IMG/VR virus record: IMGVR_UViG_3300026522_000051
Span: 1-44,246 of that record
Reading direction: 5' to 3' (one strand)
DNA length: 44,246 nucleotides
Source of the DNA: a virus
In this document: positions 3,289 to 24,577 of the stretch, piece after piece
How the letters are laid out: the number at the start of each line of letters is the position of its first letter
Position numbering within the stretch: the stretch's first letter is position 1
Notes under the pieces: generated by a model
The model's database searches: none
What the model was told of the DNA's origin: nothing
The model's input: only the letters and a program-made list of their open reading frames with translations
Program-made: the position numbers and the translations under genes

Positions 3289-4170
3289 AAAACCTCCATT
3301 AGGCAAATCTCTCTTATATTTGGGACAATTGCCGTAGAAATCATTTTCATCACAAGCAAGAACTTCATAAAAGCACTTATCACAGCGGGATTGATCGATC
3401 GGAATAGCCTATTCGGCAGACTTTTCATCAGAGTAGGGAACTAAAAAATTACTAATTTCTAATAATAAATCTTTTAATTCTAATTCTAAGTAATGAGTAT
3501 AGGGAATTCGAATGACTGGATAATGATGAATATGGCAATAAATATCCTTTTCTTTATCTCTTTGTTGTATTTGTTTTAATGTGTCACTGCCCCAAGCATT
3601 ATTTTGAAAATGTTGTTTTCCATCATATTCAATAATGTATTTATTATTAACGAAAAAATCAAATCTCATATTCCCACCATTTGAAGTAATACCATCTTTA
3701 AATATTTTTTCTTTTTCAAATGGCAAATTCGCTTCTCTTAAAATTTGAGAAATTTTTTGTTCTCCAAATGATTTTATACACCCACAAGATTGTGTATTCT
3801 TATCTTTTAAGGATTGACCCTCTACTGATACAACGTTTCCACATTCACATTTACATTTCCAATATACTTTAGTTGAACCATTAGGCGTTTTTTTAGAGTA
3901 ATCTTTATTTAATACTGTAAGTAATCCAAATTTTTTCCCAGTAAGATCAATTAAATTTTTTTCACCTTGTTGTTTAGCCTTTTCTTTTTGTAAGCATCCA
4001 CAACTACGTTTATGTCCTGAACGCAAATCTGTTGTTGACGCTAAGGTTTCACTTCCACATTTACATTTACATTTCCATAAAATACTTCCAACTCTATCTC
4101 GTTTATCAGTTTCTTCAATAACAGTTAAATAATCAAATGTTTGATTTAATAAATTAATTTTTTTACCCAT
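3289..4170 (-). CDS. paralog A of the repeated zinc-ribbon + DUF559/Vsr-like nuclease family. The ORF-track stop at 3409 is a TAG, and the frame continues into a Cys-rich C-terminal tail.
   Basis: It has repeated LTGKKFGLL...VYWKCKCECGN...SLKDKNTQSCGC modules. The C-terminal MRFDFFVNNKYIIEYDGKQHF...VIRIPY matches the DUF559 PD-(D/E)XK signature. After the TAG the frame reads AIPIDQSRCDKCFYEVLACDENDFYGNCPKY before a TAA. Confidence 0.65.
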
Positions 4171-4212
4171 ATTTATCTCCTCCTACATTATATAAATATT
4201 AGAGTAGATAAA

Positions 4213-4782
4213 TTATTTCTCATTGTCCAAAAAGTTTTTACATTCTTGAACTTTTTCATTCATCATCATAATGATATCATCTAAATTAACTGGATATCCA
4301 TTATGGCTATCGACCCCAACGTGAAACATATAGGGTCTATCTTCATAGAAATTAGTATTCTGATGAGTATGACCATATAGGTTTAAAGTCATTTGCCGCA
4401 GATATTCTTTTTCCAAATTACTAGTTAAAGTCGGAAAATGAGACATATAAAAATGATATTTACGATAATCCAGCTTAATTGCCCACGCGACTTCAACAAC
4501 ATTAGGAAGTTCTTTATACATAGCTTCACGAGTTGGAGTATCGTGATTACCAAGCACAATATGAATTCTTCCTTTTAGCCTTTTAATAAACTCAATATTG
4601 CTTTTGTTACCGAGCATCAAATCTCCAAGAATATATACTGTATCATCAGGCTGAACAAGAGAATTAAATTTCTCGATCTGAATTTCATTCATTTCTTCAA
4701 CTGAAGAATAACCTCGTGCTTTCCAGACAAATTCTCTATCATGCCCGAAATGAAAATCACTTGTAAGCCAAATATTACTCAT
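4213..4782 (-). CDS. calcineurin-like metallophosphoesterase
   Basis: It has the DFHFGH, GDLMLGN and GNHD motifs. Confidence 0.8.
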   Translation of the reverse strand: MSNIWLTSDFHFGHDREFVWKARGYSSVEEMNEIQIEKFNSLVQPDDTVYILGDLMLGNKSNIEFIKRLKGRIHIVLGNHDTPTREAMYKELPNVVEVAWAIKLDYRKYHFYMSHFPTLTSNLEKEYLRQMTLNLYGHTHQNTNFYEDRPYMFHVGVDSHNGYPVNLDDIIMMMNEKVQECKNFLDNEK

Positions 4783-4800
4783 AAATTAATCATCCCCTTT

Positions 4801-5358
4801 TTATACTTGAATTGGTTTTCCAATCCAAGTACAGTCATAATAGTTTCTTCTTTTTCCATCATTGCTACACCAAAGGACATCTCTATACTCATATTTTTCA
4901 CCATGATCGGGAAGAACATAAGTATCATACATTCTTTTAATAGCAGCAGCAGGAACGTTTTCTAAACCGCTTCTCTGCTTATTATACTCATAGCACTTTT
5001 TAAGAGAAGTAATCATACCAACACAAGTAATATCAATATCTTTTAAAAAGTCTGCTCCAAGAGCATTAAGAAGTTTATTTCGAGAACGCTCATTTAAATG
5101 AGTAGCATCAGCAATTACAACATCATACTTTTCAAAGCTTTCTTTAATAGTTTTTACATATTCATTGAAAACTTCAGATTCATGTTCAAAGTAATTGGTA
5201 GAAGAATTCTTTTTAAGAAAAGAAAAACGAATCTTATCTCTTGAAACAATAATCCAAGACTTTTTGCTCCAATAAGGATCTTTCGTAAAATAAAAATTAG
5301 CAAAAGTACTTTTACCGGACGCCGGAGGCCCGCATATAATCCAAAGATCTTTCCGCTT
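4801..5358 (-). CDS. P-loop kinase, polynucleotide kinase-like (AAA_33 type)
   Basis: It has a GPPASGKST Walker A motif. The start is probably the internal M (MKRKDLWIICGPP), since the upstream part of the ORF-track ORF overlaps the next gene. Confidence 0.65.
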   Translation of the reverse strand, partial: KRKDLWIICGPPASGKSTFANFYFTKDPYWSKKSWIIVSRDKIRFSFLKKNSSTNYFEHESEVFNEYVKTIKESFEKYDVVIADATHLNERSRNKLLNALGADFLKDIDITCVGMITSLKKCYEYNKQRSGLENVPAAAIKRMYDTYVLPDHGEKYEYRDVLWCSNDGKRRNYYDCTWIGKPIQV

Positions 5359-5575
5359 CATCTTTATACACTCCATTCTTAAAATTTTCAAGAAATTCTT
5401 CAACATCTTCTTCATTCTTACACTCTACATGATTTACTTCCTCTTGGCAATAAATACAATAGAGCTTTTTACGATGGAATTTACTGTGTTGGAATCCAGA
5501 TTTACGCTGAATAGGAATTCCTTTATGACCACATTTCATACAATAGAATGAATGTTCCTCGAACATATTTATCAA
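5312..5575 (-). CDS. small zinc-finger protein (CxxC...CxxC)
   Basis: ORF-track ORF MKCGHKG...CIYCQEE. Confidence 0.45.
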   Translation of the reverse strand: MINMFEEHSFYCMKCGHKGIPIQRKSGFQHSKFHRKKLYCIYCQEEVNHVECKNEEDVEEFLENFKNGVYKDEAERSLDYMRASGVR

Positions 5576-5599
5576 TTCCTTTCTTAACTTTCTATAAAT

Positions 5600-5628
5600 A
5601 TTATAATATATTTTTTATAAAAAATCAA
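5600..5628 (-). promoter_or_regulatory. sigma70-like promoter of the repeated family
   Basis: The reverse complement reads TTGATTTTTTATAAAAAATATATTATAAT. Confidence 0.55.
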
Positions 5629-5837
5629 TTTTCTTTTTTTAATTCAGGATGTTGTTCAAGGTAAGCCGAATACTCGCGGTCCATTTCTTCCATAAAATCA
5701 AAATATGCTTGTTGGGCAATTTTTGTCTTTCGTCTTTTTAAAGCAGAACAATCTTTTCCACAATAATTTGCTCGACGACATTTACCGCATTCTCCTTCTA
5801 ATTTCCATTGGTCAGAAATAGGAATATTTTTCTTCAT
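5625..5837 (-). CDS. small Cys-rich hypothetical protein
   Basis: ORF-track ORF ending at a TGA. Confidence 0.45.
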   Translation of the reverse strand: MKKNIPISDQWKLEGECGKCRRANYCGKDCSALKRRKTKIAQQAYFDFMEEMDREYSAYLEQHPELKKEN

Positions 5838-23298: not shown

Positions 23299-23310
23299 AA
23301 ATCTTTCCTT

Positions 23311-23337
23311 AAAAGGAGAGGATTTCTCCTCTCCTTT
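23311..23337 (-). terminator. 11-bp perfect hairpin AAAGGAGAGGA/TCCTCTCCTTT, probably a terminator
   Basis: It lies directly downstream of gene 23374..23562 on the minus strand. Confidence 0.45.
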
Positions 23338-23373
23338 ATATAAAATTACTTAATACAAGCGTAACGCTCAGTA

Positions 23374-23562
23374 TTAAGCTTTTCTATCATAAGATATATT
23401 ATTTTTTGATTTATTATAAAAATATGATTTATAATAATTAATACTCTCACAAATGGCACAAATTATAGACATTGCTCCAAAAATCCAATATCCTTTAATT
23501 AGAAAAATAAAAGTAAAAATAATATCAAATATAATTAAACCTAAATCAGTATATTTTTTCAT
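23374..23562 (-). CDS. small hydrophobic protein
   Basis: ORF-track ORF of 62 aa, probably a transmembrane protein. Confidence 0.3.
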   Translation of the reverse strand: MKKYTDLGLIIFDIIFTFIFLIKGYWIFGAMSIICAICESINYYKSYFYNKSKNNISYDRKA

Positions 23563-23628
23563 ATTTTCCCTCCTTATATAAATATATTAACATAAATTTA
23601 TATAAAAGTCAAATTAGTTGCAGTTTCC

Positions 23629-23683
23629 TGGTCAGCCGATCGGAAGAACCTGGCACGGCAATTACCGCACCAGGTATTTATCT
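23629..23683 (-). other. GC-rich structured element. It forms a 10-bp hairpin with two G·U pairs on the minus-strand RNA, and contains a CCGATCGG palindrome.
   Basis: TTTCCTGGTCAGCCGATCGGAAGAACCTGGCACGGCAATTACCGCACCAGG stands out in an AT-rich spacer, 3' of paralog D. Confidence 0.35.
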
Positions 23684-23707
23684 CCCATAATCATTTCCAT
23701 TGTAATA

Positions 23708-24577
23708 TTATCTTTTTTCCCAATAAGGTATTCTCACTAATGGAATATTATTGTCTATCGCCCACTTATTTTTTCTATTATCTCGCTCTTGGCGTTTCTG
23801 TAAATCATCTTCTGTATCATTCCATACTCCGCTACGAGAAGTAAAATGTTGAATACCATCAAATTCAATTAGTCTTACTACTTTTTCATTTTCCAATAAA
23901 GCAAAATCAAATCGTAAATTACCAATTTCTTTTATAGTATATTCTTTCTTATACTCAATATCATTTGCTTGTAAAATCATTTGAATATTTGTTTCTCCAA
24001 TTGAAGAAGAAATACAGCCACAGGATTGAGTAAGACCACGACGCAAAAATGAACCATTTACATCACATTCATTTCCGCACTCACATTTACAATGCCACAT
24101 AAGGCTTGATGAATCGCTTTTTATTGGATATAAAGCAGTAAGCTTTCCAAATTTTTGATTTGTAATGTCTATTCCTTGAACTTCTCTAATAAGACAACCG
24201 CAGGATTGAGTATGATTGTTTTGTAAAGAATGAGTTGGCACATTTTTATAATTGCCGCAATCACATTTACATTTCCATACTACGCTTCCGTTTTGACGTT
24301 CTTCTGTGCGAGATTCTACAACCAATCTGCCGAATCTTTTACCAACCAAATAATTTAGTTTATCTTCTTTGGCTTGTTCTTTCTCCTTTTGAAGTTGTAA
24401 TTTTATACATCCGCAATCGTGAGGAATATTTCTTTTCAAAGACTCTGCGGATACTTCTACTATATTACCGCACTCACATTGGCATTTCCAATATACATGA
24501 CGAGCACGGGATGGTGCTTTTTCAAGCACGGTTAATTTATCAAATACTTTACCAGTTAAATCAATTAATTTTGGCAT
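23708..24577 (-). CDS. paralog D of the zinc-ribbon + DUF559-like nuclease family
   Basis: It has four LTGKVF...VYWKCQCECGN...SLKRN..HDCGC-type modules. The C-terminus LRFDFALLENEKVVRLIEFDGIQHF...PLVRIPYW is DUF559-like. Confidence 0.7.
   Translation of the reverse strand: MPKLIDLTGKVFDKLTVLEKAPSRARHVYWKCQCECGNIVEVSAESLKRNIPHDCGCIKLQLQKEKEQAKEDKLNYLVGKRFGRLVVESRTEERQNGSVVWKCKCDCGNYKNVPTHSLQNNHTQSCGCLIREVQGIDITNQKFGKLTALYPIKSDSSSLMWHCKCECGNECDVNGSFLRRGLTQSCGCISSSIGETNIQMILQANDIEYKKEYTIKEIGNLRFDFALLENEKVVRLIEFDGIQHFTSRSGVWNDTEDDLQKRQERDNRKNKWAIDNNIPLVRIPYWEKR

Follow-up and report, generated by a model that had tools for sequence, protein, structure and literature searches.

Four phage genes joining a zinc-module array to a Vsr-like nuclease are probably independently acquired homing endonucleases

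Why would a phage carry four related genes that each join an array of cysteine-rich modules to a nuclease-like C-terminal domain? The question is raised by the IMG/VR record IMGVR_UViG_3300026522_000051, a stretch of 44,246 nt hereafter called the window, whose coordinates we use throughout, with TAG read as Gln. A preliminary description had proposed that these genes, here named HE1 to HE4, are homing-endonuclease-like selfish genes, and our analysis supports this proposal. HE1-HE4 are most probably four free-standing homing endonuclease genes, acquired independently of one another, that belong to one large family combining a zinc array with a Vsr-like nuclease.

Under the standard code, intact open reading frames (ORFs) are found for just two of the four genes, and all four are recovered once TAG is treated as a sense codon. 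The existence and strands of the genes were given correctly in the preliminary description, as were the limits of HE4, but the other limits had to be revised (3289 for one end of HE1; 6961-7680, which is out of frame, for HE2; 17232-18021 for HE3). The genes and their parts are as follows.

HE1, 3280-4170, minus strand: 296 aa with one in-frame TAG (Gln) at codon 254 (3409-3411), where the standard code stops
HE1 parts, minus strand: zinc module 1 at 3994-4161, zinc module 2 at 3778-3945, Vsr-like nuclease at ~3436-3771
HE1 Cys4 tail, 3283-3408, minus strand: 42 aa past the TAG, of the pattern CxxC..C..C..YKRDxPxGGFY, written CxxC..C..C..YKRDPPDGGFYG
HE2, 6959-7687, plus strand: 242 aa with nine in-frame TAG; the sole family member on this strand
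HE2 parts, plus strand: zinc modules at 6968-7135 and 7175-7342, nuclease at 7349-7684
HE3, 17229-18023, minus strand: 264 aa; of its five in-frame TAG codons, one falls on the invariant Gln of DGxQH
HE3 parts, minus strand: zinc modules at 17850-18017 and 17619-17786 (the second ending in SCGS), nuclease at 17232-17609
HE4, 23708-24577, minus strand: 289 aa, no TAG
HE4 parts, minus strand: three zinc modules at aa 2-57, 73-128 and 133-188, nuclease at aa 192-289
HE4 C-terminus remnant, 23662-23712, minus strand: out of frame (DNITMEMIMGDKYLVR*), seen in three-frame translation and matching the conserved tail of homologues P0001, P0007 and P0016

To place these genes in context, we compared the window with IMG/VR loci that share its 828-aa neighbour gene (25 loci) or its phosphoesterase gene (7 loci). 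The sister phage, IMGVR_UViG_3300045988_151351 (201 kb; loci L001 and L026), was analyzed by blastn, junction sequences, a 200-bp identity profile and tblastn synteny. It is 97-98% identical to the window at the nucleotide level over ~31 kb and lacks all four HE genes, with clean junctions. Because all four are missing from a 98%-identical phage, HE1-HE4 are most probably mobile genes of a selfish kind rather than part of the phage's core functions. Related genomes with all four copies at conserved positions, which the preliminary description had named as an argument against mobility, were not what we found, since the closest relative has none of the four and carries a different member elsewhere. 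The inserted segments are listed below.

HE1 segment, 2941-4236: HE1 with the small ORF(s) at ~3036-3290; 114 bp in the sister phage
HE2 segment, 6867-7747: 58 bp in the sister phage; supplies a new YbiA-like 3′ end (copy at 7688-7708)
HE3 insertion, 17232-18097: nothing in the sister phage, whose nucleotidyltransferase and phosphoesterase genes overlap there
HE4 cassette, 23400-24736: in order, a new DUF2828 3′ end, a terminator-like hairpin (24665-24694), a promoter-like site (24611-24639), HE4 and a 62-aa ORF (23374-23562)

The promoter and terminator scans are consensus matches, which we used only to note the signals of the HE4 cassette.

Around HE1, identity to the sister phage is 76-79% at 2401-2940 and 64-74% at 4237-4600, and ~98-99% beyond, while the two proteins adjoining HE1 are 71% and 88% identical to those of the sister, versus ~98-99% elsewhere. 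Such diverged tracts and proteins are what co-conversion from a divergent donor would leave, and the tracts, which span 400-600 bp on each side, look like co-conversion. HE2, HE3 and HE4 sit in gene ends, where the cassette brings a diverged substitute for the lost end, so that the host ORF stays intact, and 20-25 bp of the original end remain across the insertion. At HE2, the original YbiA-like gene-end sequence persists as a remnant at 6844-6866. HE3 is flanked by an imperfect direct repeat of its target, at 18098-18121 (TAAACATTGGCTTGTAACTGGGGA) and 17211-17231 (TAAGCATTGGCTTGTCACAGG), the empty-site junction in the sister phage reading TAAACATTGGCTTGTAACTGGAGACATTCATGG, and HE4 lies between diverged target copies at 24737-24763 and 23376-23399. 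At both HE3 and HE4, the flanking alignments to the sister overlap by 24-25 bp.

Moreover, the same lineage occurs at the same target gene in divergent phages and is better conserved there than the sequence around it. The HE3 orthologue in locus L022 is 78% identical and shows the same junction remnants, with flanking genes that are 55-58% identical, and the HE4 orthologues in L033 and L034 (84% and 77% identical) immediately follow DUF2828 genes whose own identity is only 54-59%, and are themselves followed by unrelated genes. One to three family members are also present in other relatives, where the sites vary; in L005, the nucleotidyltransferase/phosphoesterase junction is again among them. 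The sister phage has a divergent member of its own (L001 ~7190-8030), which combines the same nuclease with degenerate zinc modules and contains one TAG, between homologues of the genes for 377 aa (26686-27819) and 510 aa (24707-26239); the corresponding site in the window is only 11 bp long, at 26354-26366.

We infer that, during co-infection, the enzyme would cleave a related phage's empty allele at the gene end or close to it, and that repair would copy the endonuclease gene, together with flanks of variable length, from the carrier genome. The carrier, having its target split and mutated, would be immune, and the cassette would supply a replacement end for the interrupted host gene.

The best surviving alternative, which we nevertheless consider improbable, is that HE1-HE4 are domesticated nucleases serving the phage in host-DNA degradation or competitor exclusion, their variable presence reflecting turnover of accessory genes. 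Homing endonucleases are able to serve also as weapons when phages compete, and such a double role would fit this alternative, as would the conserved catalytic residues described below and the terminator-like and promoter-like signals that HE4 has of its own. However, each lineage keeps to one specific target gene end even in divergent genomes, an association that a host-DNA nuclease does not need, and all four genes are dispensable in a 98%-identical phage. In addition, HE4 is frameshifted, and competitor exclusion would use the same cleavage of empty sites anyway.

We then considered what the C-terminal domain is. The shared block reported in the preliminary description is indeed present in all four proteins, as (S)xGE ... 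RFDF ... IE(F/Y)DGxQH ... RDxxK ... P(L/V)(V/I)RIPY. In domain numbering, its residues E4, D38, E48, H54, D72 and K75 do not vary among 28 diverse domains and are retained in all four copies, and across several alignments the acidic, His and Lys residues are invariant in 28-55 diverse homologues. They fall on helix 1 (Glu), in RFDF (Asp), in IExDG (Glu), in QH (His) and in RDxxK (Asp and Lys). This set appears to correspond to the metal-binding and catalytic residues conserved in the Vsr/DUF559/DUF2726 group, namely acidic residues on strands 2 and 3, a His, and Asp/Lys on the next helix. The predicted core has the order alpha-beta-beta-beta-alpha-beta, is restriction-endonuclease-like and superposes on structures of the Vsr group, with Escherichia coli Vsr as the top structural match. 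The DUF2726 model (PF10881) matches 36 of 49 and 25 of 28 family members, and homologues P0025, P0052 and P0080 pass its gathering score; the DUF559 model (PF04480) finds one of the 28 domains (E 0.022) and the Vsr model (PF03852) none. Pfam scans of the four proteins returned no HNH model, and scans with NCBIfam and PADLOC gave no meaningful match. Vsr, DUF559 and DUF2726 have been placed in one PD-(D/E)XK group together with 1cw0, 3hrl and 3r3p (Steczkiewicz et al., PMC3424549), and on the predicted structure the C-terminal domain is a nuclease of this Vsr/DUF559/DUF2726 type. The profile searches, which might have put the domain outside the PD-(D/E)XK fold, came out in favour of the preliminary assignment.

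This likeness raises the possibility that the HE proteins are mismatch-repair nickases of the Vsr type, or restriction or defence nucleases, that merely share the fold. Besides the top structural match, the name “very-short-patch-repair endonuclease” given to homologue P0186 in one source and the “Restriction enzyme” label of neighbours in BFVD point that way. We regard it as very unlikely, since several divergent copies per genome, long zinc arrays, a sporadic and site-specific spread and fusion partners of the homing type are unlike a housekeeping repair enzyme; moreover, no PADLOC defence model matches, although no search was aimed at a methyltransferase partner.

The N-terminal part of the proteins consists of zinc modules. 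A six-frame search of the window (C.C.CG-x(8-25)-CG[CS]) found nine modules, all within HE1-HE4 and none outside, and the numbers per gene, put at two to four in the preliminary description, are 2, 2, 2 and 3. The module is a Cys5 unit of ~56 aa that reads G-x-L-x-V ... W-x-C-x-C-x-C-G-N, then 17 aa, then S-C-G-C, and the spacer from CxCxCG to CGC is 17 residues long in 92% of 636 distinct modules. Conservation is seen at W-2, C0, C2, C4, G5, N6, V10, L15, G18, T20, S22, C23, G24 and C25, and positions 7-9, 11, 13-14, 17 and 19 vary most. In the AlphaFold2 model of full-length HE4 (pLDDT 85), each module folds into three strands and a short helix, and CGC begins the linker helix. We infer that the array would read a long asymmetric DNA site.

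With a single module of 56 aa as query, 41,479 of 1.84 billion cluster representatives were matched at E <= 1e-3, some proteins having as many as 11 copies, and a Vsr-like nuclease, recognized by its motif, is present in 25 of the 146 best module matches. Among 77 other module proteins with a long C terminus, Pfam found HNH (12, 5, 3 and 2 hits for four models), AP2 (7), T5orf172/MUG113 (4) and MTES_1575 (2); the partners HNH, T5orf172 and AP2 are typical of homing endonucleases. Among cultured phages, 424 records contain the module, most of them under the label “HNH endonuclease” or “hypothetical”. Some arrays are without any nuclease or end in AP2 or helix-turn-helix (HTH) domains, and relatives in C. 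difficile phages are annotated “putative regulatory protein”, both of which would suit sequence-specific DNA-binding regulators with an inactive nuclease domain. Yet the invariance of the acidic, His and Lys residues over 28-55 diverse nuclease-bearing sequences argues for retained catalysis, and the pattern of presence and absence is that of mobile genes, so that a purely regulatory role appears hardly credible.

The family itself is large. Homologues of the HE proteins number in the thousands, and the four proteins match PHROG profiles at 1e-15 to 1e-56, far beyond chance. Such proteins are already held in PHROGs 559 and 374 (“HNH endonuclease”), 9084 (“homing endonuclease”) and 7140 (“intron encoded nuclease”). 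The HNH label of PHROGs 374 and 559 stems from other members, which combine these zinc modules with HNH, and does not apply to HE1-HE4. Thus, the claim of an undescribed architecture stands in part: no Pfam or NCBIfam model covers the zinc module in scans of the four proteins, and we found no description of it in homing endonucleases in a literature search whose incomplete coverage does not prove absence, but the proteins themselves were already in these PHROGs. What seems to lack a description is the tandem zinc array as the presumed targeting domain, which is extremely widespread; the kind of element is already known. The nuclease domain is present in 354 cultured phage records, chiefly of Staphylococcus Twortvirinae, where it is joined to other DNA-binding parts. 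No cultured phage record covers at least 80% of HE4, and the BFVD neighbours with the full architecture are from uncultured gut phages. Likewise, a DNA search with 25 kb of the window against 50,697 GenBank phage records returned nothing, the relatives being IMG/VR and metagenome contigs only.

The term paralogous, applied to the four genes in the preliminary description, holds as far as homology goes, but expansion within the genome does not. The copies are only 34-41% identical to one another, in the N- and C-terminal halves alike, and therefore are separate acquisitions and not recent duplicates; in addition, each has much closer orthologues (78-92%) in other phages, which argues for independent acquisition. 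The position of four homologous genes inside 21 kb might suggest a true paralogous expansion by duplication within the window genome, the least likely of all the readings given this low mutual identity, the closer relatives elsewhere (HE1 92%, HE3 78%, HE4 90%) and a near-identical sister phage with none of the four.

As for the codon usage, the preliminary description had reported that two copies are heavily recoded with TAG and two are not, and the counts agree with it (nine and five in HE2 and HE3 versus one and none in HE1 and HE4). TAG makes up 56% of the Gln codons in HE2, 38% in HE3, 14-25% in late structural genes and 0% in the early genes around the HE genes, except for g13254 (a single TAG, 17%). 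TAG codons are confined to endonuclease genes, to tail-fibre-like late genes at 35-44 kb and to three single-TAG ORFs (978-1427, 13254-13874 and the small ORF beside HE1), in agreement with the late-gene recoding already described in the literature. The Gln of DGxQH that is encoded by TAG in HE3 is invariant in 49 homologues, and the L022 orthologue has a CAA or CAG Gln codon at four of the five HE3 TAG positions. The HE1 tail past the TAG is conserved in frame in 11 homologues, which have Gln opposite the TAG wherever the linker can be aligned, and tRNA(CUA) genes are found in the related loci L003, L010, L013, L019 and L021. A preprint on recoded phages reported that an intron endonuclease is preferentially recoded and proposed that in-frame stops delay production (10.1101/2021.08.26.457843). 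We tentatively propose, with somewhat less than even confidence, that the phage decodes TAG as Gln and that the TAG load of HE2 and HE3 and the TAG before the HE1 tail delay or limit translation until suppression is active; HE4 is free of TAG but frameshifted and may be decaying. TAG-dense endonuclease genes among TAG-free early genes offer a handle on whether stop-codon recoding times expression.

Several observations weigh against the interpretation of HE1-HE4 as homing endonucleases. Two copies may be inactive: the second module of HE3 lacks one Cys, and in HE4 one surplus A in the A-run at 23713-23718 cuts off the conserved last ~19 residues, the extra A being either decay or a homopolymer assembly error. 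Cleavage and zinc binding are predictions from sequence and modelled structure. With DUF2726, the window copies score 14-20 bits, under the gathering cut-off of 24.7, and HMMER searches of all PDB sequences, with single sequences and with a profile, returned chance matches only, with no 3r3p, 1vsr or 1cw0 at E <= 10. The nuclease assignment therefore rests on predicted structure and weak Pfam matches, because HMMER profiles reach no solved Vsr-like structure. At the insertion sites, clear flanks are seen at HE1 alone, the diverged tracts at HE2-HE4 being only ~100 bp or less, and the target-remnant repeats are unlike simple double-strand-break repair from a donor and imply an older, partly illegitimate insertion. 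Finally, the 44-kb window contains no tRNA(CUA) gene, and the richness in TAG could be AT-biased drift in weakly selected genes.

The surroundings of the HE genes show further features. All credible genes of the window are on the minus strand except HE2, whose 3′ end overlaps that of the convergent YbiA-like gene (7679-8101) at a hairpin with a 13-bp stem (7663-7696). The GC content of the endonuclease genes is 23-33% (HE2, 23%) versus 30-45% for backbone genes. Two small ORFs on the minus strand travel with the endonuclease cassettes: an acidic ORF of ~83 aa with one TAG adjoins HE1 at 3036-3290, and a hydrophobic, two-helix ORF of 62 aa lies by HE4 at 23374-23562, its last codons falling in the target remnant.

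Elsewhere in the window, two other endonuclease genes interrupt tRNA genes.

GIY-YIG insert, 29185-30036, 852 bp (ORF 29209-29952, minus strand): Pfam GIY-YIG E 7e-10; nine TAG, 60% of its Gln codons; 22% GC
467-bp insert, 28251-28717 (ORF 28257-28679, minus strand): 140-aa PD-(D/E)XK endonuclease of the I-Ssp6803I type; Pfam PDDEXK_5 E 8e-30

The first lies exactly inside the anticodon of tRNA-Gly(UCC), between nt 35 and 36 of a gene that is uninterrupted in the sister phage (L001 4848-4924). The last exon base ahead of this insert is a C, and the final base of the insert is an A, a combination not typical of group I splice sites. The second splits tRNA-Lys(UUU) after nt 36, this gene being likewise intact in the sister (L001 5308-5383), and leaves little room for a ribozyme because only ~44 nt lie outside the ORF. 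Rfam found no group I intron around either interrupted tRNA gene. Between two phages of ~200 kb that are ~98% identical, seven insertions of endonuclease genes make the difference over 31 kb. The locus provides a clean natural case of homing-endonuclease traffic, and its exact junctions are candidate target sites that can be tested directly.

Three other features are visible along the window. In the sister phage, L026 ~8807-9308 holds ~490 bp between homologues of the genes at 8105-8908 and 7679-8101, which abut in the window (8101-8105). Identity to the sister is low at 16601-16800 (64.5%) and 19801-20200 (71-87%), inside sequence that is otherwise 98-100% identical and with no adjoining endonuclease gene; these patches may be mosaic recombination. 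Last, the GC content reaches 45-47.5% at 32001-36000 (53.5% in the ORF at 33231-34079) versus ~29-37% over most of the window, with values up to ~42% in places, and both strands of this region hold long ORFs that overlap.

The more valuable lead lies in the DNA-binding part, a compact module present in tens of thousands of proteins and joined to at least three nuclease types. As a speculation that we hold to be rather unlikely, the Cys5 module could be an undescribed and very widespread DNA-recognition unit, whose arrays read DNA module by module like zinc-finger or TALE arrays, with homing endonucleases being retargeted by the shuffling of modules before interchangeable nucleases (Vsr-like, HNH, T5orf172) and TAG recoding acting as a translational timer. 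If recognition were indeed modular, the module would be a new scaffold for programmable DNA binding.

Among known systems, the catalytic domain is close in kind to that of I-Bth0305I and the “EDxHD” homing endonucleases, which include free-standing phage genes of the Hef type (PMC3239194): the predicted Vsr-like fold is the same, is C-terminal in both, and the residue order agrees. In contrast with I-Bth0305I, the HE array is made of Cys5 zinc modules and not of NUMOD or HTH domains, for which no Pfam match was found in the four proteins; the HE domain is nearer to DUF2726, has no sequence match to 3r3p even by profile, and the HE genes lie outside introns and inteins. Strict membership of HE1-HE4 in the “EDxHD” family is thus not supported at the sequence level, where HMMER gave no 3r3p match. 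E. coli Vsr (1cw0) is a single-domain housekeeping nickase of T:G mismatches with an internal zinc site of its own, whereas the HE proteins are multi-domain, sporadic and associated with sites. DUF559/DUF2726 proteins such as NGO0050 (3hrl) are in the same structural group as the HE nuclease domain.

The Seg and Mob enzymes of T4-type phages and I-TevI combine GIY-YIG or HNH nucleases with NUMOD or HTH binding domains, and I-TevI also has a zinc finger. The T4-type free-standing endonucleases share with the HE genes an intergenic or gene-end site and a modular layout of nuclease plus binding region, and probably also expression signals of their own and transfer of flanking markers. The HE proteins differ in their predicted Vsr-fold nuclease and in having a tandem array of zinc modules for binding. 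In Herelleviridae, the “intron encoded nuclease” proteins (PHROGs 7140 and 9084; Staphylococcus phages JS1 and phiRNIID) have the same nuclease domain at 35-43% identity and are free-standing among structural genes; these proteins are without zinc modules, one has an I-HmuI NUMOD-like domain, and the nuclease is sometimes N-terminal. Conversely, Enterococcus phage EfV12-phi1 gp144 and Clostridium phage phiCDHM11 gp28 (PHROGs 374 and 559) carry the same tandem Cys5 module at their N terminus, followed at the C terminus by an HNH-type partner in the former and AP2 in the latter, and not by the Vsr-like nuclease of the HE proteins.

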